Below, in pieces: positions 1,532 to 46,271 of a stretch of DNA of 64,000 nt (the first letter of the stretch is position 1; the number at the start of each line of letters is the position of its first letter). The DNA comes from an uncultured Chloroflexia bacterium (GTDB lineage Bacteria; Chloroflexota; Dehalococcoidia; DSTF01; JALHUB01): assembly GCA_963842845.1 (NCBI GenBank), contig CAWJHZ010000019.1, positions 64,995 through 128,994 of the forward strand. Reading direction: 5' to 3'. Made by a program: the position numbers and the translations under genes. Under the pieces are notes generated by a model that saw nothing but the letters and a program-made list of their open reading frames with translations, did no database searches and was not told the origin of the DNA.

Positions 1532-1679
1532 CAGGGCCTAGCTCGCCTGTCGCCAGAGGCGACTCGCCAGCGGCGAGAGGCGGGACGGGGGAACCGAAGG
1601 CAGCATGGGGTGTACTCGCCTTAGGCGAGGGGGTAGTCTCTTTCAGCCCTAACCCGACAGCTAACCTCGTAGGCCACTG
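1532..1679 (+). promoter_or_regulatory. c-di-AMP riboswitch (ydaO-yuaA class)
   Basis: Conserved blocks in the expected order: GACGGGGGAACC (1584-1595), AUGGGGUGUACUC (1605-1617) and AACCCGACAGCUAACCUCGUAGGCC (1651-1675). The last is close to the hallmark CCGACAGCUAACCUCGUAAGC. A closing P1 helix pairs CAGGGCCUA (1532-1540) with UAGGCCACUG (1670-1679). It sits in the 365-nt gap upstream of the GT20 gene. Confidence 0.8.
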
Positions 1680-1704
1680 AAAGAGGGCTGGTTCCAAACA
1701 AGAC

Positions 1705-41132: not shown

Positions 41133-41154
41133 TCGTACACGCTAGCGTGTACGA
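41133..41154. promoter_or_regulatory. 22-bp perfect palindrome, candidate operator
   Basis: TCGTACACGCT/AGCGTGTACGA is perfectly self-complementary. It lies 8 nt upstream of the ATG of the XRE-HTH gene (minus strand). Confidence 0.5.
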
Positions 41155-41182
41155 AAGTCAATAGCCCGTTGCGAAACTCGGG

Positions 41183-41425
41183 CTAGTCGGCGACAGCCAC
41201 AGTAAGTTCTTCTGTGCCCTCGGTCACTTGCAGCCCAGATCGATGCAGTTCCTTTTCGAGGGAGCCCTGCCGCTCCAGCGGTTTCAGTAGAAGCAGAACC
41301 GTTCTTTCCAGATTCCGGCGCGCCATGTCTGGGGAAGCCCCATGTGCCGTCAGCCCCAACTGAGGGCTGCGTGCCGCAAACCCGTTCTTAATCCGATACA
41401 CGTCGTGTTTGAGTACGACTAGCAT
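41183..41425 (-). CDS. HicB-like (UPF0150) antitoxin-fold protein
   Basis: ATG at 41425 preceded by GGAGG gives MLVVLKHDVYRIKNGFAARSPQLGLTAHGASPDMARRNLERTVLLLLKPLERQG... This fits the HicB N-terminal-domain pattern (x-G-F-x-A-x-x-P-x-L-G-x-x-x-x-G-x-S-x-x-x-A). No hicA was found nearby. Confidence 0.45.
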   Translation of the reverse strand: MLVVLKHDVYRIKNGFAARSPQLGLTAHGASPDMARRNLERTVLLLLKPLERQGSLEKELHRSGLQVTEGTEELTVAVAD

Positions 41426-41519
41426 CTCTGTCCTCCAAATCGTCGATTTTCTATTCACTTTAGGCAACCGACGGACGGACTGCAAATAACGTACCCAGAA
41501 AATAAGGCGTCGCTACCCC

Positions 41520-41548
41520 TTGACAAGCTCGGATACGGTCGCTAGAAT
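41520..41548 (+). promoter_or_regulatory. sigma-70-like promoter candidate (TTGACA-17-TAGAAT)
   Basis: TTGACA at 41520-41525, a 17-nt spacer and TAGAAT at 41543-41548, about 30 nt upstream of the DUF5343-like ORF, which has AGGAGG before its ATG. Confidence 0.55.
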
Positions 41549-41580
41549 ACAGCTAAGTTGAGTTACAGGAGGTCAGTTTC

Positions 41581-42306
41581 ATGGTCGCAGTCGGGCAGGA
41601 GAACAACCGGCCGTATCCACCCCCTTCAAACGTAGTGAGCGTGCTCCAGCGGCTGAGGTCGCGCAACTTACCCGAGCGCATAGACGCTGAGTATCTACGG
41701 GATGCCAGCATTCCTGAGGGTACGATTGGGCGTACGTTATTCGCCCTCCGCTTTCTCGGTATCATCTCAGAAGAGGGCGAACCGACTCAGGCTCTTCAAT
41801 CGATTCACACGAGCACCGACGAAGAGTATCGGGCAATCCTAGGTGGATTGGTGCGGGAGGCATACAAAGAAGTCTTCAACGTGCTCGACCCAGCGGAAGA
41901 CTCCCAGGATCGTATCATCAACGTTTTTCGGCGATACACACCCGCCTCTCAGCGCAACCGCATGGCCGTGTTCTTCTTGGGGATGTGTCGTGAAGCCGCC
42001 ATCGCGACCCTGGATGTGCCACGGCAGCGCGCGATGGTAGGCGGGAGACCGGGGACGCGACCGTCACCGGCTAGAGCAACTCGCGCACCGGTGGTCGCAC
42101 CGCCCAAGCCAAGGTACTCGTCTGACGTAGCGCCAGCGCTTGAGGGTCTGATCAAGAGTCTACCAATCCCTGGTACACCCCTGAGTCTGGAGCGCCGTCA
42201 GCAGTGGCTTAAGATGGCAGAGGCTACTCTGGCCTTCGTCTATCCAGACGAAACGGATGTGCCCTTATCAGCACCGGTGGACGAAGAAACGGAGGAGGTG
42301 GACTAG
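41581..42306 (+). CDS. DUF5343-like hypothetical protein
   Basis: 241-aa ORF. The N-terminal part (YPPPSNVVSVLQRLRSRNLPERIDAEYLRDASIPEGTIGRTLFALRFLGIISEEGEPT) resembles my recollection of the DUF5343 family. The C-terminal half is Pro/Ala-rich with an acidic tail. Confidence 0.45.
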   Translation: MVAVGQENNRPYPPPSNVVSVLQRLRSRNLPERIDAEYLRDASIPEGTIGRTLFALRFLGIISEEGEPTQALQSIHTSTDEEYRAILGGLVREAYKEVFNVLDPAEDSQDRIINVFRRYTPASQRNRMAVFFLGMCREAAIATLDVPRQRAMVGGRPGTRPSPARATRAPVVAPPKPRYSSDVAPALEGLIKSLPIPGTPLSLERRQQWLKMAEATLAFVYPDETDVPLSAPVDEETEEVD

Positions 42307-42366
42307 CAGACAAAGAACGGCGGAGCGTCCACGTGGTAAGTGTCCAACGCTCCGCCGTCGAGAGAT

Positions 42367-42445
42367 GCGCCGGTAGCTCAGTTTGGACCAGAGCAGGGGC
42401 CTGCTAAGCCCCAAGTCGGCGGTTCGAATCCGCCCCGGCGCACCA
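42367..42445 (+). tRNA. class-I tRNA with anticodon GCU (nominally Ser) but Arg-like architecture; CCA encoded
   Basis: Hand-folded cloverleaf. The acceptor stem GCGCCGG/CCGGCGC has 7 bp, the D stem GCUC/GAGC has 4 bp, and the D loop is AGUUUGGACCA. The anticodon stem GGGGC/GCCCC has 5 bp with loop CUGCUAA, and the variable loop is AAGUC (5 nt). The T stem GGCGG/CCGCC has 5 bp with loop UUCGAAU, the discriminator is A, and CCA follows. All stems are Watson-Crick. Confidence 0.88.
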
Positions 42446-42513
42446 ACCAGTTAGTGGCACTCAGAGCGCGGCAAACACCCTGAGCGCCGTGGCACACAGG
42501 AGGGCTAGCTCCT

Positions 42514-43692
42514 ATGCACGCATCCCATTATAACACGGGTCGGCAAGCCCGTGAACGGCGACCATTCGAGGACTTAGGAAGACTGTTTGACGCGCTGGAC
42601 GATGCGGCACTCCTTGAGCGTCTAGTAGAGACACGTTGGACAGGGCGACCGGGCTATCCCGTCAAGATAATGTGGCGAACCTTGATCGCATCCTTCGCGC
42701 TCGGGATTGTGCACGACACTGACCTAGTTCGAGCGCTGCACGCTAACTCACAGCTCGCAGCCATCTGTGGGATTAACCAGCGGCGGAGCATACCGAGCAA
42801 GTTCGCCTACTGTCGCTTCCGTCGCAAGCTTGTCGCCTTCAACGGGCTAGTGGCTGACGTGCTCGCTCGCTGTGTTGAGCGGCTGCGGGAGAACCTGCCG
42901 GAACTTGGCCAGACCCTCGCAGTCGATTCGACAGATATCAAAGCGTGGGCCAACTGCGGACACCATGATACCGATCCAGATGCTGGCACCGGCGCGAAGA
43001 AGAAGTCTGGCGGTACGCACTACTGGTACGGCTACAAGGTCCACACGGTTGTGGACGCGGACGCCGAGTTACCGGTGTGGTTCACGGTTACAGCAGCCAA
43101 CACTTACGATGGCTCGATGCTCCCGCCCGTATTAGAGGAGGCTCAGGCACAATACGGTTGGCTGAAGCCGAGGTATGTGACTGCGGACAAGGGCTACAAC
43201 GCTCGGGCTTGCTTTGACTTCGTGGGCGAGACAATGAAGGCAATCCCCGTGATTGACGTTCAAGCGCGTCAGGCTAAGAAAAGGGAAGGCCGACCATGCG
43301 AAGCGAAGCCGATAGTGACATCGACTGGCCTTCATTGGGAGTGCAATCGCCTTCCCTACGATCCGGTTTGCCCGCGCTTCGGCAAATGCCCACTCCTACC
43401 TATGTTCGCGGACGGGGAACTCAACAAGAGCATCGCTGGTCGCTACTTCGAACGGCACAGTCCCTTCCCTTACGGCTCGTGCCAGTGGAAGGCCATCTAC
43501 AATAAGCGAGTGTCAGTGGAAAGGGTGTTCAGTAGACTGAAAGGCTACCGGAAGTTGGATGCAATCAGGACGCGAGGCTTGCTCAAGGTGCGGCTACATG
43601 TTGCTCTCAGTATGTTGGCAATGGTTGGGCTAGCTCTCGCCAATATGACGGGAGGGTACGCAATGGGGAAGCAGTGTCTCGAAGTCGCATAA
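42514..43692 (+). mobile_element. DDE transposase gene of an IS5/IS1182-like insertion sequence (element ends not defined)
   Basis: 392-aa ORF with an InsH-type N-terminal domain (GRPGYPVKIMWRTLIASFALGI...CGI...FAYCRFRRKL). The DDE_Tnp_1-type catalytic region has LAVDSTDIKAW, YGYKVHTVVDADAELPV, YVTADKGYN and YNKRVSVERVFSRLKG. I could not find convincing terminal inverted repeats. Confidence 0.85.
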
Positions 43693-43870
43693 TCCTACGT
43701 TGGCCCCGTGGACTTTCGACTGGAAACGTAGTAGGATTCTAGGCGGAGAAAAGAATAGAAGCCGCTCTGGCAAGCGGCTCCTGTAGTTCCAAGGGTGTAG
43801 TCCTTTACTGGTTCCTCGCCGTAAGGATACGCCCTTGTTGGCGTTGTGTCAACAGGCGAGGAGGCAGAAT

Positions 43871-44599
43871 ATGGGGACGCTCTCTGACACACAGATACGC
43901 CGCTTAGTCAAATCGGGCGAGCTGGTCATCGAGCCATTTGACGATAGTTTGGTTCAGCCCGCAAGTTATGATCTCCGGCTTGGCGGGAAAATCCTTGCGA
44001 GCCCCCTTGGTGTGGACATTCTGGGAGCAACCATTGAATTGAATGAGAAGACGCCGAGCTATCGTGTGCAGCCTGGGCAAATGGTCGCAATCATCTCGGC
44101 AGAAGTGCTCGGACTTCCATTGGATGTATGCGGCAGATTCGGAATCCGATCAGAATTCGCACGTCGTGGGCTCGATCCTTTTGGCGGGCCGCAACTTGAT
44201 CCGGGATTCAGGGGCCGCCTCACCCTCTCTCTCGTTAATGTCGGACCGGAGCCCGTCACACTCACCCGAGGAATGCCAATGCTCAGCGTCGAGTTCAACA
44301 GGCTGGAAGAACCGGCGGAGAGGGGATATCAAGGCCAATACCAAGGGCAGGAGGATTTCCCGCCGGATCAATACGAGTTTATCCTCTCAGCGCACACGAC
44401 GAGTCTTGCCGAGATACCATCTCTGCGGCTAGAAGTAGCGCGATTGAGCATACTGGTGGAGGAATTGGACGAGAAGCTGCCCGACCCAGACGAGGGCTTA
44501 GAACTGAGGCCCGAAGCTGAGGATCGGCTCCGCCGTTCGCTACAGAAGCCTCGGGAGTCGTTCCTGTCAGCTGATATCATCCGTAAGAAGGTAGGTTGA
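43871..44599 (+). CDS. dCTP deaminase/dUTPase-fold (Dcd-like) protein with about 80-aa C-terminal extension; catalytic Glu apparently replaced by Ser
   Basis: ATG at 43871 behind GAGGAGG gives MGTLSDTQIRRLVKSGELVIEPF...ASYDLRLG...GRFGIRSEFARRGL...LDPGFRGRLTLSLVNVG. This aligns by eye with the E. coli Dcd motifs GRSSLARLG and IDPGWSGCIVLEFYN. The C-terminal part (LAEIPSLRLEVARLSILVEELDEKLPDPDEGLELRPEAEDRLRRSLQKPRESFLSADIIRKKVG) is not part of the Dcd fold. The stop overlaps the next gene start (TTGA). Confidence 0.75.
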   Translation: MGTLSDTQIRRLVKSGELVIEPFDDSLVQPASYDLRLGGKILASPLGVDILGATIELNEKTPSYRVQPGQMVAIISAEVLGLPLDVCGRFGIRSEFARRGLDPFGGPQLDPGFRGRLTLSLVNVGPEPVTLTRGMPMLSVEFNRLEEPAERGYQGQYQGQEDFPPDQYEFILSAHTTSLAEIPSLRLEVARLSILVEELDEKLPDPDEGLELRPEAEDRLRRSLQKPRESFLSADIIRKKVG

Positions 44600-44862
44600 C
44601 TGCGCCTCCCATGCCGCTCCTGTACGACGACGATGCACTCTCAGATGTTCCCGCACAAGACCTCCAGCGCATCGTCGAAAAGGCAGAGTGGCTCTGGGTA
44701 TATCGGCAAGCCGTGACTCATCACCCCTTGCGTCATAATCTTAGCGGTTTCTACAAACGTCGTGCAGGCAACTATCGGATCATTTATACCTATGACACAG
44801 AACTTGACGAACTGGTGATCCGCTTGGTCGGCACTCGTGACGATGTATACAAACCCCGCTGA
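44596..44862 (+). CDS. RelE/ParE-superfamily toxin-like protein
   Basis: 88-aa ORF. DDALSDVPAQDLQRIVEKAEWL...LRHNLSGFYKRRAGNYRIIYTYDTELDELVIRLVGTRDDVY follows the RelE/StbE pattern (L.G....R.R.G.YR.IY......-..V.....G.R..VY). TTG at 44596 overlaps the TGA of the upstream gene; ATG at 44611 is an alternative start. Confidence 0.75.
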   Translation: MTAPPMPLLYDDDALSDVPAQDLQRIVEKAEWLWVYRQAVTHHPLRHNLSGFYKRRAGNYRIIYTYDTELDELVIRLVGTRDDVYKPR

Positions 44863-44893
44863 TCCTTGGTCTTTCCATTGGCCGCTCCCCGTG

Positions 44894-44931
44894 AGTTTCG
44901 CAACAGGCTATCAATAGCTCGTTGCGAAACT
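44894..44931. repeat. 38-nt imperfect palindrome upstream of the RelA/SpoT-domain gene; one half is repeated at 41158-41182
   Basis: AGTTTCGCAAC-AG-GCTAT-CA-ATAGC-TC-GTTGCGAAACT has 11-bp outer arms and 5-bp inner arms and ends 5 nt before ATG 44936. TCAATAGCTCGTTGCGAAACTACGG (44911-44935) matches TCAATAGCCCGTTGCGAAACTCGGG (41158-41182) at 22 of 25 positions. Confidence 0.6.
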
Positions 44932-44935
44932 ACGG

Positions 44936-46054
44936 ATGTTGCAGATGGTACTTGAGCTAGAGAGAACGGGTGAGGTAGCCTATCAAACTGATATGGGGTG
45001 GACGAAACGTGCGTACAGCCGCGAGCAAGTGAACGCCGCCGGAGCCGCGCTTGTTCACTCTGCAACCACCGCAGATGAGATGGAACACGCGCTGCTTGTT
45101 ATCAACAATTGGCGTGCCTCTCACGCCTTCCCGCTGAACACTCTTCAAATGAACTTGAGAGGAAAAACCAAGCAAGTGGACAAACGCGGCTTGGTTGCCC
45201 AACGCATCAAAAGACTGCCCGCTATCCAACTCAAGCTCAGTCTCATGCCAGACTTGCGGCTGACCCAGATGCAGGACATCGGCGGGTGCCGAGCTGTGGT
45301 GGGCTCAATTTCTGCCGTCAATCGTCTTCGTCGCTTGTATGACCTGACTGAATTCAAACACGAACGCGCTCATTTTGATGACTACATCGGTACCCCCCGA
45401 GACTCGGGCTACAGGGGGATTCACTTCGTCTGGCGCTACTACAGTGACAAAAACGAATCCTACAATGACCTGAAGATAGAAATGCAGTTGCGCACGAGGC
45501 TTCAGCACGCTTGGGCTACAGCCGTGGAGACAGTCGGCACGTTCAAGCAGCAGTCATTGAAATCGGGATTAGGCGACGAACAATGGCTAAGGTTTTTTGC
45601 GCTGATGGGCAGCGCTATTGCTCGTCGAGAGAGAAGTCCTCTTGTGTCAGCTACCCCGACCGAGGAGGCTGAACTGATTCGCGAGTTGAAGTACTACGTC
45701 GAGGAACTTGACGTGATTGGCCACCTAACAGGATACCGGCTCGTACTGGACAACGTATTATTGGGCCGTTTCAAGGGCCTTCGCTACTTCTTGCTTGACT
45801 TGAAACCTCGCGAGGGCCGACTACTGGTAACGCCGTATCTGAAGAAGGAAGTTGAAGCCGCGTCGAACCAGTATTTAGATGTTGAGCGACAAGCGAGGCT
45901 GCCATTCGCCGAACAGCGTGACGCAGTGCTCGTTTCCGTCGATTCGCTAAGAGAGTTGCGCGCTGCTTACCCCAATTACTTTGCGGACACACAGCGATTC
46001 GTGGAGGAAGTGACGCGTGCTATCCAAGGTCCAACTACCGGAGCGAGGGCCTAG
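44936..46054 (+). CDS. RelA/SpoT-domain protein (small alarmone synthetase / toxSAS-like) with about 150-aa C-terminal domain
   Basis: 372-aa ORF with synthetase motifs RIKRLPAIQLKL, MQDIGGCRAVV, DYIGTPRDSGYRGIHFV and IEMQLRTRLQHAWATAVE. The C-terminal region has no motif I recognise. The start is uncertain (ATG at 44936, 44945 or 44993). Confidence 0.8.
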   Translation: MLQMVLELERTGEVAYQTDMGWTKRAYSREQVNAAGAALVHSATTADEMEHALLVINNWRASHAFPLNTLQMNLRGKTKQVDKRGLVAQRIKRLPAIQLKLSLMPDLRLTQMQDIGGCRAVVGSISAVNRLRRLYDLTEFKHERAHFDDYIGTPRDSGYRGIHFVWRYYSDKNESYNDLKIEMQLRTRLQHAWATAVETVGTFKQQSLKSGLGDEQWLRFFALMGSAIARRERSPLVSATPTEEAELIRELKYYVEELDVIGHLTGYRLVLDNVLLGRFKGLRYFLLDLKPREGRLLVTPYLKKEVEAASNQYLDVERQARLPFAEQRDAVLVSVDSLRELRAAYPNYFADTQRFVEEVTRAIQGPTTGARA

Positions 46055-46200
46055 GCAACACACCTCCGTAATTCTCCAGACAATTGCGGGTTCGCCAGCG
46101 CTGCTATATTCATCACTAGTAAGTTGAGCGCCACGTGCAGCCACACCTTGGCCAAGCCTCGCGTCCTGATTGCGTCCAGTTTCCGATAGCCTTTCAGTCT
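46051..46200 (-). pseudogene. 3-prime remnant of a second IS5/IS1182-like transposase gene (inverted relative to the intact copy)
   Basis: The minus-strand translation RLKGYRKLDAIRTRGLAKVWLHVALNLLVMNIAALANPQLSGELRRCVA* parallels the intact transposase C-terminus RLKGYRKLDAIRTRGLLKVRLHVALSMLAMVGLALAN. The first 75 nt or so are about 85% identical to 43534-43608 by hand alignment. Similarity stops abruptly upstream of 46200. Confidence 0.65.
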
Positions 46201-46271
46201 GCCTCTGCCAAAGAAGCATCGGGAGGGACCGCAGCTTATTGCATCGCATGGCGGTGTGAGCTAATATTGGG

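Follow-up and report, generated by a model that had tools for sequence, protein, structure and literature searches.

What does a tRNA do when its body belongs to one amino acid and its anticodon to another? Natural tRNAs of this kind are rare. The question is raised here by a single gene in the window, the 64,000-nucleotide stretch of DNA that was analysed. This gene has the body of an arginine tRNA and an anticodon that pairs with serine codons.

An arginine-type tRNA with the anticodon GCU

The gene is located at 42367..42445 on the forward strand and is the single tRNA called by ARAGORN in the 64-kb window (anticodon gct, 79 nt including CCA). Rfam model RF00005 matches it over its full length with 67.6 bits (gathering threshold 29; E 1.4e-12), and the number of non-standard pairs flagged is 0. 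The minimum-free-energy fold is exactly the cloverleaf, with -38.4 kcal/mol and a z-score of -2.84. A flawless class-I cloverleaf with a GCU anticodon had been proposed from the letters of the sequence, and these three results confirm it.

As read from the sequence, the acceptor stem is GCGCCGG/CCGGCGC and the D stem GCUC/GAGC. The D loop of 11 nt, AGUUUGGACCA, contains G18, G19 and A20. The anticodon stem is GGGGC/GCCCC and its loop is CUGCUAA, with a normal U33 in the window copy. The variable loop, AAGUC, has 5 nt, and the long variable arm of class-II tRNAs is absent. The T arm is GGCGG-UUCGAAU-CCGCC, the discriminator A73 is at 42442, and the CCA end is encoded. The anticodon occupies 42403-42405, with G34 at 42403, C35 at 42404 and U36 at 42405. 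The sequence-only reading had put G34 at 42400, which is C31; the correct position is 42403 because the D loop has three extra bases. The anticodon GCU pairs with the serine codons AGC and AGU, and it reads no arginine codon, for which NCG or YCU is needed.

Bacterial ArgRS recognizes its tRNAs by A20 (the main determinant), C35, U or G at position 36, and A or G at position 73 (PMC9976931). The window tRNA carries the full bacterial arginine identity set, A20, C35, U36 and A73 (PMC9976931, Table 1). Bacterial SerRS needs the long variable arm as its main determinant (established knowledge; PMC9976931). Thus, with a variable loop of 5 nt, recognition by SerRS is not expected.

Further evidence for the origin of the body comes from searches that disregard the anticodon. 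The anticodon-blind motif GGACCAGAGC-N6-CT-NNN-AA-N13-GGTTCGAATCC, in which the anticodon is free, was searched in metagenomic contigs, and 117 of the first 120 matches are tRNA-Arg (TCT 98, ACG 10, TCG 6, CCG 2, GCG 1). Among these first 120 matches, the specificity of the GGACCAGAGC motif for tRNA-Arg is 97.5%, and the body is therefore of arginine type. With the anticodon masked, the nearest neighbours of the window tRNA are tRNA-Arg(UCU), at 76-79%. Its best annotated phage matches are mostly tRNA-Arg as well. The arginine-type body and the ArgRS identity set, both suggested earlier, are upheld by these results. The window gene is a genuine, intact tRNA with the anticodon GCU, and its ancestor was a tRNA-Arg of the UCU/CCU type.

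It shares with tRNA-Arg(UCU) the cloverleaf, the GGA motif of the D loop with A20, C32, C35, U36, A37, A38, a purine at position 73, and the T loop. It differs in G34, which leads to pairing with AGC/AGU (serine) instead of AGA/AGG, and in its D loop of 11 nt. Some tRNA-Arg(UCU) genes are carried by phages and islands, where they serve to read rare AGA codons. Like these, the window tRNA is found on a mobile element, with genes that are relatively rich in AGA and AGG. It differs in lying inside a transposon with a protein gene on either side, and in lacking a promoter-like site of its own.

A single base separates this anticodon from UCU, which is enough for an error to have produced it, and a one-base error in an ordinary tRNA-Arg was among the explanations first considered. 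It is refuted by further copies. Eight contigs, which stem from at least seven samples, carry the tRNA gene with GCU; the sources include Logan (one contig), an NCBI MAG, an ENA assembly and four assemblies of JGI. The gene occurs there in two alleles, one D-loop base apart, and G34 recurs in diverged positional copies in related elements. Because the same gene recurs in this way, G34 is not a sequencing error, and an assembly error is ruled out on the same evidence.

Class-I tRNAs with GCU and an arginine-type body can also be found sporadically in other phyla. A survey of 185,579 species genomes gave 50 class-I GCU loci; ARAGORN called 43 of them, and A20 is present in 34 of these 43. Several are clear decayed duplicates. 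For instance, locus L003 has a diverged partial copy adjoining an intact tRNA-Arg(UCU). In viral contigs, all three well-formed GCU tRNAs of this body class have C33 (3/3), compared to 0/93 with other anticodons. Of the 15 class-I GCU matches in viral contigs, most are fragments of tRNAs, left uncalled by ARAGORN, and these matches are uninformative. Dehalococcoidia use ordinary serine tRNAs, as follows from a class-II tRNA-Ser(GGA) of 83 nt in a Dehalococcoidia chromosome (L035).

The transposon around the tRNA

The tRNA had been described as lying next to an insertion sequence. This can now be refined. The tRNA is a conserved internal part of a 3.75-kb transposon (41161-44911) with 19-bp inverted repeats at both ends, and it sits between the DUF5343 gene and the transposase gene. 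The order of parts is a small ORF, DUF5343, a conserved hairpin, the tRNA, an IS1182/IS5-like transposase, and variable toxin/defence cargo. The tRNA is about 60 nt 3' of the DUF5343 gene and about 70 nt 5' of the transposase gene, all on the same strand.

Homology to L050/L307 begins exactly at the left terminal repeat (ATAGCCCGTTGCGAAACTC; 41161..41179, forward strand). The right terminal repeat (44893..44911, reverse strand) has 1 mismatch to the left one. The window has three copies of the repeat, where 0.02 would be expected by chance. The same pair of repeats flanks the element in L307, and a diverged but perfect pair flanks it in L316.

A direct repeat that would mark a target-site duplication is not evident at the three junction pairs inspected. 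At all three, a palindrome, TACACG..CGTGTA, is found about 8 nt outside one end. In L307 the element is inserted at the same junction in the opposite orientation. The order from small ORF through DUF5343, hairpin and tRNA to transposase recurs in other genomic contexts, and the module is also present at the loci L313, L325, L321, L324 and L335. Exact-protein look-ups of the GroEL and DUF2851 proteins of the window, aimed at strains with an empty site, found neither on record.

The small conserved ORF (41183..41485, reverse strand; 80-100 aa), recognized by its conservation across loci, is divergent from the DUF5343 gene. It is found next to DUF5343 in 10 of 11 distinct loci, the exception being L335, where no such ORF was called. 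Pfam, PADLOC and NCBIfam gave no match for it, and the PDB no meaningful one. A by-eye impression that it is HicB-like was dropped, as PDB sequence and profile searches gave no support; for this ORF and for DUF5343 they returned designed-repeat or chance matches only.

The DUF5343 gene (41581..42306, forward strand) encodes a protein of 241 aa that is matched by Pfam PF17278 (E 3.2e-17) and by the PADLOC candidate defence component PDC-M34A (E 1.9e-10 and 9.7e-8). In a PADLOC scan of the other five proteins, no PDC-M34 model gave a match. There are at least 261 homologues of DUF5343, the named ones from Dehalococcoidia; no relatives were found in viral contigs. Only 2 of 68 class-I GCU loci have a DUF5343 gene nearby. 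The AlphaFold model is all-helical, with a pLDDT of 78. Compared with the PDB using Foldseek, it has no match below E 0.36 and only weak winged-helix-like fold matches. The protein is rich in conserved arginines, and these, together with the weak fold matches of the model, would be compatible with nucleic-acid binding. A literature search on PDC-M34 or DUF5343 found nothing specific.

A sigma-70-like promoter, TTGACA-17-TAGAAT, precedes the DUF5343 gene (41520..41548, forward strand; 11 of 12 matches in a consensus scan). Compared to L050 it has a single difference, in the -10 hexamer (TAGAAT versus TAAAAT). Upstream of the tRNA, the scan found no other promoter-like site on the same strand, and the interval from the DUF5343 gene to the tRNA has none. 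This interval, from the DUF5343 stop codon to the tRNA, holds a 9-bp hairpin (GGCGGAGCG...CGCUCCGCC; 42319..42356, forward strand), which was read from the sequence. A hairpin with other stem sequences is found at the same position in L316, L313, L325, L324, L335 and L334, and a T-rich tail comes after it in L334 and L324. It is possible that the hairpin acts as a leaky terminator or a processing site.

The transposase (42514..43692, forward strand; 392 aa) is a DDE enzyme for which Pfam DDE_Tnp_1 and DUF772 score above their cut-offs. Its best NCBIfam matches are IS1182 with 157 bits (cut-off 270) and IS5_4 with 91 (cut-off 140), both below the cut-off. Identity to L050/L307 falls right after the CCA of the tRNA, and the transposase proteins are only 80% identical. 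The element resembles transporter insertion sequences of the IS1182/IS5 kind in having a DDE transposase, short terminal inverted repeats and a few kb of passengers, and in occurring in varied genomic contexts and orientations. Unlike them, it has a conserved tRNA passenger between DUF5343 and the transposase, a target-site duplication is not evident, and the IS1182 score is below cut-off.

The cargo is variable. In the window it consists of a dCTP deaminase-like gene (43835..44599, forward strand; Pfam DCD; NCBIfam TIGR02274, 111 bits, above cut-off), which is not present in other copies of the element, and a ParE/RelE-like toxin ORF of 88 aa (44596..44862, forward strand). The latter rests on weak matches to Pfam ParE_toxin (E 5.7e-4, below cut-off) and NCBIfam RelE_StbE. 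Elsewhere in the family the cargo is Gp49/HTH/SecB (L313) or SocA_Panacea (L335).

A RelA/SpoT-like enzyme encoded nearby had been linked to the tRNA. This link is not supported. The gene (44936-46054; PADLOC PDC-S33, E 8.5e-116) lies in a separate partial unit (44914..46222, forward strand) with its own terminal repeat, the third copy in the window (44914-44932). The same unit includes an inverted remnant of a transposase 3' end, 76 nt long (46125-46200, from sequence comparison), and backbone homology restarts at 46222. The RelA/SpoT gene is found in the window and the identical contig L001 only, and is absent from the other family loci (L307-L320). Because it belongs to this separate adjacent unit, its proximity is coincidental. 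A toxSAS enzyme acting on the tRNA was rejected accordingly, as conserved linkage is lacking and the gene sits behind a separate terminal repeat. The upstream TsaD gene was also rejected as a partner of the tRNA, since it belongs to the backbone. No synthetase or other obvious tRNA partner gene was found among the genes of the element.

Conservation and decay in related elements

Related elements provide copies of the tRNA at the same position. The analysis covered about ten lineages of the element family, with five to six distinct cloverleaf copies. Six copies were aligned to look at covariation: those of the window, L307, L316, L335, L334 and L004. In this alignment 98.4% of the stem cells pair, and compensatory double changes are seen in 14 of 21 pairs. 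None of 500 shuffles reached the observed level, and slid controls gave 30-50%. On this pattern of covariation, the positional copies are judged to be under selection for the cloverleaf.

The identity elements have been kept along with the fold. A20 is invariant in the six copies. G34-C35-U36-A37-A38 is constant while the variable, D and T loops and all four stems have changed, with L334 as the exception. GCUAA is in register in three of four related lineages. In L334 the insertion of an A turns the anticodon into AGC by a shift, with the loss of C35. The arginine set and GCU are kept together in window/L307, L316, L335 and L004, with covarying stems. Position 33 is C in three related lineages (L316, L335 and L334).

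In the DUF5343 tree, the GCU state is found on both sides of the deepest split, which indicates that GCU is ancestral and not a recent accident of the window copy. Locus L004 has a second arginine-type tRNA(GCU), 1.3 kb from a DUF5343 gene that is 42% identical. There the tRNA stands alone, convergent to the DUF5343 gene, and a promoter-like site (TTGACT-17-TCGAAT) can be seen by eye 8 nt upstream.

Other lineages show decay. L313, L325 and L324 have tRNA-like remnants without a D arm and with a loop of 8-10 nt, in which the acceptor and T arms are kept. The acceptor stem of these remnants has 7 bp with compensatory changes, and ACCA is kept in L313 and L325. In L321 and L333 DUF5343 is present and the tRNA is absent. 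The DNA 3' of the tRNA is also conserved, including a GGAG...CTCC palindrome at the start of the transposase gene.

Being conserved inside a Dehalococcoidia transposon, the tRNA with the wrong anticodon is probably a selected feature. The remnant or absent tRNA in sister lineages means that the element can do without decoding, and the role common to the family could be one of structure only. The decayed copies thus favour a non-decoding role, as a crippled or decoy tRNA.

Possible roles of the tRNA

Codon usage bears on what such a tRNA could do. AGC had been said to be abundant in the window, and it is in fact the commonest serine codon there, at 20.7 per 1000 codons. It is the most used serine codon of the host, and strong harm should follow from an Arg-tRNA(GCU) that works efficiently. 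It can also be asked whether AGY stands for arginine in the genes of the element itself. This was rejected: the AGY codons of DUF5343 and the transposase align with Ser, Thr, Ala and Gly and interchange with TCN, and so mark serine or small-residue positions rather than arginine positions. A single column has AGT for CGT, in a lineage without a functional tRNA.

The explanation preferred here, with a confidence somewhat short of even, is that the gene is a conserved, transposon-borne derivative of tRNA-Arg with the anticodon GCU, which is charged by ArgRS and inserts arginine at AGC and AGU at a low level. Transcription, charging, decoding and any benefit are putative. As the tRNA has no promoter-like site of its own, its transcript would come from the DUF5343 promoter by read-through past the conserved hairpin, probably at a low level. 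Normal tRNA-processing enzymes would then excise the tRNA, and ArgRS, which in bacteria does not read position 34, would charge it. The resulting Arg-tRNA(GCU) would pair with AGC and AGU in competition with the host tRNA-Ser(GCU), leading to rare insertion of arginine. Possible benefits are addiction or defence by means of a toxic tRNA, or adaptive mistranslation.

Possible signs of attenuation are the lack of a promoter-like site between DUF5343 and the tRNA and C33 in L316, L335 and L334. The restriction of C33 to GCU tRNAs in this body class in viral contigs, and the absence of U33 from known natural mistranslating tRNAs, fit with this. A more specific form of the preferred explanation couples a selected Arg-charged tRNA(GCU) that rewrites AGC/AGU to DUF5343 (PDC-M34A). 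The tRNA would be a toxin that serves abortive infection or addiction, or else a source of mistranslation that can be switched, with its dose limited by read-through and, in the sister lineages, by C33. This form is improbable.

The main rival to a mistranslating tRNA is a role in cis, which is possible though on the whole unlikely. The tRNA would be a tRNA-shaped RNA of the transposon, a processing signal of the RNase P/RNase Z type or a regulator of stability or translation. It would separate the DUF5343 and transposase messages and set transposase expression, with no decoding and an anticodon loop that is incidental or bound by a protein. Such a role would suit a tRNA that always lies between the DUF5343 and transposase ORFs, on their strand, after a hairpin and without its own promoter-like site, and it would suit remnants that keep the acceptor and T arms (with ACCA in L313/L325), the parts recognized by processing enzymes. 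The conserved sequence after the tRNA, palindrome included, points the same way. However, processing needs neither A20 nor a fixed GCUAA, and the solitary, convergent tRNA of L004 has its own promoter-like site. The two roles are also compatible with each other. Alternatively, a tRNA-Arg(UCU), captured or once serving AGA/AGG-rich genes, may have hitch-hiked on the element, changed U34 to G, and become a silent or tolerated decaying pseudogene. AGA and AGG together make up about 19 per 1000 codons in the genes of the element, against 7.9 per 1000 in the host, which makes such a passenger plausible. The sporadic arginine-type GCU tRNAs of other phyla, some of them decayed duplicates, and the decay or loss in sister lineages agree with this. 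A pseudogene, on the other hand, would not stay 98% paired with compensatory changes at 14 pairs, and it would not retain GCUAA and A20 in lineages as distant as these, with DUF5343 identities of just 65-75%. The ancestral GCU state is also at odds with a recent change in the window copy. Hitch-hiking is thus improbable.

The tRNA could instead work outside translation, as the RNA partner of a module for defence or of the toxin-antitoxin kind, serving as decoy, sensor, antitoxin or substrate of DUF5343 or of tRNA-targeting toxins in the cargo. DUF5343 does match a candidate phage-defence component and may bind nucleic acid, the family carries toxin and defence genes as cargo, and the association of DUF5343 with tRNA(GCU) is seen again in L004. 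Yet no significant structural or sequence relative points to the function of DUF5343, two lineages have DUF5343 without any tRNA, and the RelA/SpoT-like toxin candidate lies outside the element. This partnership is conjectural and quite improbable. Finally, the anticodon alone points to tRNA-Ser, and the ARAGORN name tRNA-Ser rests on the anticodon. A true tRNA-Ser, charged by SerRS despite the short variable loop, is nonetheless hardly credible, and an error is refuted. G34 is shared by the eight contigs and by diverged relatives, the gene has A73 and lacks the arm that SerRS needs, and an ordinary class-II tRNA-Ser is present in Dehalococcoidia.

Several known systems can be compared with the preferred explanation. 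Mitochondrial tRNA punctuation and the tRNA-like 3' ends of long non-coding or viral RNAs are examples of tRNA-like punctuation signals. As in these, a tRNA-shaped module lies here between two same-strand coding regions, and decayed relatives keep the acceptor/T-arm half, with CCA in L313 and L325. Unlike them, the tRNA of the window is canonical and complete, has the full arginylation identity set and a conserved anticodon, and its processing is putative.

A closer parallel is found in tRNAProX and tRNAProA of Streptomyces and Kitasatospora, which are natural dual-identity, mistranslating bacterial tRNAs (PMC11415595, PMC10404621). The proline tRNAProX family is the sole bacterial case of a mismatch between body and anticodon described in a review (PMC11415595). 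In both cases an accessory gene, not a housekeeping one, combines an anticodon for one amino acid with identity elements for a different one. The natural mistranslating tRNAs known so far lack U33, and G33 curtails decoding (PMC11415595); tRNAProX relatives have A33, and three sister lineages here have C33. In contrast to tRNAProX, which places proline on Ala, Asn and Thr codons, the window tRNA would place an arginine identity on serine AGY codons. It is carried in a DDE transposon in Chloroflexota, its U33 is normal, and mistranslation is only predicted. The element encodes no dedicated synthetase of the ProRSx kind, and none is needed because ArgRS ignores position 34.

A literature search for natural arginine-type tRNAs with GCU, and for IS elements that have a tRNA as passenger, gave no specific result. 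We know of no earlier tRNA with mismatched body and anticodon that travels within a transposon.

If the preferred explanation is true, the window tRNA would be a second case of such a mismatch, aimed at the most used serine codon, and mechanistically simpler than tRNAProX in that a special synthetase is unnecessary. If the tRNA decodes, it would be either an RNA toxin or a mobile gene that causes Ser-to-Arg substitution throughout the proteome. If it has no part in decoding, a transposon would have recruited a tRNA as a structural module of its transcript. In both cases, the tRNA offers a concrete handle on the function of DUF5343 / PDC-M34A. There is also a warning for annotation: calls of 'tRNA-Ser(GCU)' with a length of 72-79 nt usually have arginine-type bodies.

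The tRNA and its identity

The sole tRNA that ARAGORN detects in the 64-kb window is a 79-nt gene, CCA included, at 42367-42445 on the forward strand, with anticodon gct. The Rfam tRNA model matches it over its full length at 67.6 bits (gathering threshold 29) with zero non-standard pairs, and its minimum free energy structure is a cloverleaf (-38.4 kcal/mol, z -2.84). Read from the sequence, this consists of a 7-bp acceptor stem, a 4-bp D stem with an 11-nt D loop (AGUUUGGACCA), a 5-bp anticodon stem with loop CUGCUAA, a 5-nt variable loop (AAGUC), a canonical T arm, A73 and an encoded CCA. These results agree with an earlier, sequence-only reading except for the position of G34, which was placed at 42400 and is found at 42403 because of three additional bases in the D loop.

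Bacterial SerRS relies on the long variable arm of tRNA-Ser, which the focal tRNA lacks. Its relatives can be identified without reference to the anticodon. Metagenome contigs were searched with a pattern fixing the T loop (GGTTCGAATCC) and, in the D arm, the end of the loop plus the 3' strand of the stem (GGACCAGAGC), while the anticodon and the remaining stems were left unconstrained. Among the 120 matches listed, 117 are tRNA-Arg (anticodons TCT 98, ACG 10, TCG 6, CCG 2 and GCG 1; the others are CTT 2 and CAT 1). With the anticodon masked, the closest of about 500 collected tRNAs are tRNA-Arg(UCU), at 76-79%, and most of the top annotated matches among phage records are tRNA-Arg as well. 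Arginine identity in bacteria is set by A20, C35, U/G36 and A/G73, with position 34 outside this set (PMC9976931, Table 1); all four elements are present. The gene departs from tRNA-Arg in one defining feature, the anticodon, and from tRNA-Ser in its defining feature, the long variable arm. Thus, as had been proposed, an arginine-type body carries a serine-type anticodon.

AGC was also correctly noted as abundant: it is the host's most used serine codon (20.7 per 1000). The arginine codons AGA (2.5 per 1000) and AGG (5.4 per 1000) are both rare.

The anticodon could in principle have arisen from a one-base error in an ordinary tRNA-Arg, as was once suggested. Sequencing error is excluded by the recurrence of GCU in other assemblies. 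The Logan contig L001 carries an identical gene, and a variant with a single D-loop change (UUUGG to UUAGG) and the same anticodon occurs in contigs L050 and L307-L312 (an NCBI MAG, four JGI assemblies, one ENA assembly, peat Dehalococcoidia). That the gene is an error of any kind, or a true tRNA-Ser, is very improbable.

A transposon carrying the tRNA

The window shares a backbone with L050 and L307 at about 95% identity: TsaD, DUF2851 and an HTH gene, followed by GroES/GroEL. The stretch that separates the HTH gene from GroES is rearranged. A 19-nt repeat, ATAGCCCGTTGCGAAACTC, for which 0.02 copies are expected by chance, occurs at 41161-41179(+), 44893-44911(-) and 44914-44932(+). In L307 the same repeat flanks an inserted segment as an inverted pair, and in L316 a diverged, perfectly inverted pair does so. 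The first two copies in the window are thus the terminal inverted repeats of a 3.75-kb transposon, 41161-44911, and the tRNA is inside it. The gene had been described as next to an IS; the bounding repeats place it within the element.

From the left repeat, the element contains a minus-strand small ORF, a sigma-70-like promoter (TTGACA-17-TAGAAT), the DUF5343 gene, a 9-bp hairpin, the tRNA, a DDE transposase gene of IS1182/IS5-like type, cargo at 43835-44862 and the second repeat. The cargo consists of a dCTP deaminase-like gene (TIGR02274 above cut-off), whose stop overlaps the start of an 88-aa ParE/RelE-like ORF. That of L307 differs (63-aa and 243-aa ORFs), and other toxin or defence cargo is found in the family loci L313 (Gp49/HTH/SecB) and L335 (SocA_Panacea).

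The L307 element has the same HTH-side junction as the window, in reversed orientation. In L316, from a more distantly related genome (HTH protein 53%, GroES 84% identical), the backbone locus is again the same. About 8 nt beyond one terminal repeat of all three elements is a palindrome, TACACG(N4-6)CGTGTA, which adjoins the start of the XRE-type HTH gene (window 41140-41160, L307 13455-13480, L316 about 145-171). It may be the operator of the HTH gene, a preferred transposon target, or both. Because it lies outside all three elements, their shared locus may reflect a preference for that target site and not a single ancient insertion; the GC3 of the element genes, 0.60-0.65 versus about 0.83 in the host, points the same way. 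In L004, a contig of a Ca. Limnocylindrales MAG, a similar palindrome stands 3' of the hairpin that follows DUF5343.

From the left repeat through the CCA of the tRNA, the window and L050 are about 96-97% identical; the match collapses right after it, and the transposases of the window and L050/L307 are only 80% identical. Thus, two modules join where the tRNA ends. At two loci, HTH/DUF2851 ... GroES (window and L307) and Trm112p/HPPK ... p450 (L313 and L325), the block formed by small ORF, DUF5343 gene and tRNA-like sequence occurs in both orientations relative to the same backbone, an arrangement that suggests recurrent in-place inversion or re-insertion.

A partial second mobile unit (44914-46222) abuts the transposon. 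It holds the third copy of the 19-bp repeat, a RelA/SpoT-like gene that matches PDC-S33, one of PADLOC's single-gene candidates (E 8.5e-116), and, at 46125-46200, 76 nt left over in inverted orientation from the 3' end of a transposase gene (86% complementary to 43534-43609). The RelA/SpoT-like gene is absent from all other element copies fetched up to the search for it. Its proximity to the tRNA had seemed suggestive; since it sits behind the third repeat in a separate unit and is missing from those copies, the nearness is coincidental. So is that of TsaD, which belongs to the backbone.

Far from the element, at window 1555-1690(+), Rfam RF00379 identifies a c-di-AMP riboswitch aptamer of the ydaO/yuaA type (62.6 bits, gathering threshold 38), immediately 5' of an ORF whose start is at 1827.

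Conservation and possible function

Searches detect 261 homologues of the DUF5343 protein, and the named ones are from Dehalococcoidia. The state of the tRNA was surveyed in the contigs of nine of them. The window and L307 have the canonical tRNA with U33 and GCU. In L316-L320 (DUF5343 76% identical) the tRNA scores 60.9 Rfam bits and has GCU, C33 and T loop AUCGUAC; L335 and L336 (67%) also have GCU and C33. L334 (68%) has a cloverleaf with an extra A and loop CCAGCUA, which ARAGORN calls as anticodon AGC. Remnants in L313-L315, L325-L332 and L324 have no D arm and an 8-10-nt loop, but retain the 7-bp acceptor stem and the T arm, with an ACCA end in L313 and L325. No tRNA-like element is found at the DUF5343 locus of L321 or L333. 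A hairpin follows the DUF5343 stop codon in all family loci, with differing stem sequences; in L334 and L324 it has a T-rich, terminator-like tail.

GNAT toxins that acetylate aminoacyl-tRNA exist, and in L333 a GNAT acetyltransferase gene replaces the tRNA and transposase (1051-2325). After L307, the L333 DUF5343 protein is the closest to the window's (77% over 81% of the query by BLASTP; 74% in the tree alignment).

In a neighbour-joining tree of DUF5343, the GCU-tRNA is found in both branches of the deepest split as well as in the outgroup. It is therefore the ancestral state, followed by several losses or degradations. L004, one of 50 class-I GCU loci from a separate scan of species genomes, has an arginine-type tRNA(GCU) that an IS separates from a 42%-identical DUF5343 gene 1.3 kb away; read by eye, this tRNA has its own promoter-like site. 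A DUF5343 profile finds the gene at just 2 of 68 class-I GCU loci, L050 and L004, so the recurrence of the pair is unlikely to be due to chance.

Evidence for selection can be provided by counting cloverleaf pairs in the aligned tRNAs of the window, L307, L316, L335, L334 and L004. Paired stem cells make up 98.4%, and 14 of 21 stem pairs have changed on both sides. None of 500 shuffles attains any of the five measures, and sliding the 3' partners by 1-3 columns lowers pairing to 30-50%. The variable loop, D loop, T loop and position 33 vary; A20 is identical throughout, and G34-C35-U36-A37-A38 is retained except for the L334 insertion. At the level of aligned sequence, selection is shown to act on the cloverleaf, A20 and GCUAA, and the pattern is not that of a fresh pseudogene. 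Recognition by ArgRS explains the conservation of C35 and U36 and leaves that of G34 unexplained.

That a real tRNA with an arginine-type body and a GCU anticodon lies inside the transposon is shown. How it acts is a matter of probability. In the reading tentatively preferred here, with slightly less than even confidence, a read-through transcript from the DUF5343 promoter would include the tRNA, normal processing would free it, and the arginylated tRNA would decode AGC/AGU as arginine at a low level. The observation of the sequence-only reading is confirmed, and its interpretation is supported in part. The main rival, rather unlikely but compatible with decoding, is a module shaped like a tRNA that would act in cis, in processing or regulation. 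It draws on the fixed position between the DUF5343 and transposase genes, the lack of a promoter for the tRNA, and the decayed copies, which are reduced to the acceptor and T-arm half. A decaying hitch-hiker is improbable, and a defence-related RNA partner of DUF5343 slightly more so. Recoding of the element's own genes is rejected, because these have no AGY codons where relatives have arginine.

Low-level decoding would resemble that of the Streptomyces dual-identity tRNAProX/tRNAProA (PMC11415595, PMC10404621). Unlike these, the focal tRNA has arginine identity and serine AGY codons as its target, needs no dedicated synthetase, is carried by a transposon and comes from Chloroflexota. In the literature searched, no report was found of a natural arginine-type tRNA(GCU), of DUF5343 or PDC-M34, or of tRNA passengers within IS-type transposons. 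The gene belongs with the known identity-mismatched tRNAs, in an unexpected genetic setting.

Class-I GCU tRNAs elsewhere

The 185,579 species genomes scanned contain, in all, 50 loci for class-I tRNAs with the common D arm and a CUGCUAA loop, spread across many phyla; A20 is present in 34 of the 43 called by ARAGORN. Some are evidently decayed duplicates. In a Thermomicrobiales MAG (L003), an intact tRNA-Arg(UCU) at 1042-1117 is followed by a toxin-antitoxin-like insertion and a diverged partial copy (about 1700-1776) with anticodon GCU, in which the 5' acceptor strand has lost its pairing; it resembles an att-site copy that has been displaced. Neobacillus cucumis (L009, 1594-2160 and 5550-6118) has a duplicated block of class-II tRNA-Ser(GCU), tmRNA and a third tRNA. 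This last is tRNA-Asn(GUU) in one block and class-I GCU, an Asn-derived anticodon mutant, in the other; the tag peptides of the tmRNA copies differ. On the complete Dehalococcoidia chromosome OX638353.1 (L035, 1075-1236), 13 nt separate tRNA-Arg(CCU) from a class-I arginine-type tRNA(GCU) upstream of it, in a place where tRNA-Arg(UCU) might be expected.

Viral contigs searched for D arm GTAGYTSAATCGGA and loop CYNCUAA yield UCU 87 times, CCU 4, ACU 2, GCU with C33 3, and one non-tRNA. Within this D-arm class C33 is restricted to GCU (3/3 versus 0/93 for UCU, CCU and ACU). All three are well-formed arginine-type tRNAs (L337 8771-8847, L338 292-365, L339 12281-12357). L337 and L339 are the same sequence, and the L337 tRNA abuts a phage integrase gene. 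Natural mistranslating tRNAs are often without U33, and G33 curtails decoding (PMC11415595). The C33 of sister lineages would fit an attenuated decoder; the window copy, however, has U33.

Two viral contigs, L421 and L425, carry identical arginine-type tRNAs whose ACU anticodon would pair with AGU. In a Phycisphaeraceae MAG (L051, 1311-1513), class-I tRNAs with GCU and ACU stand in tandem, 52 nt apart.
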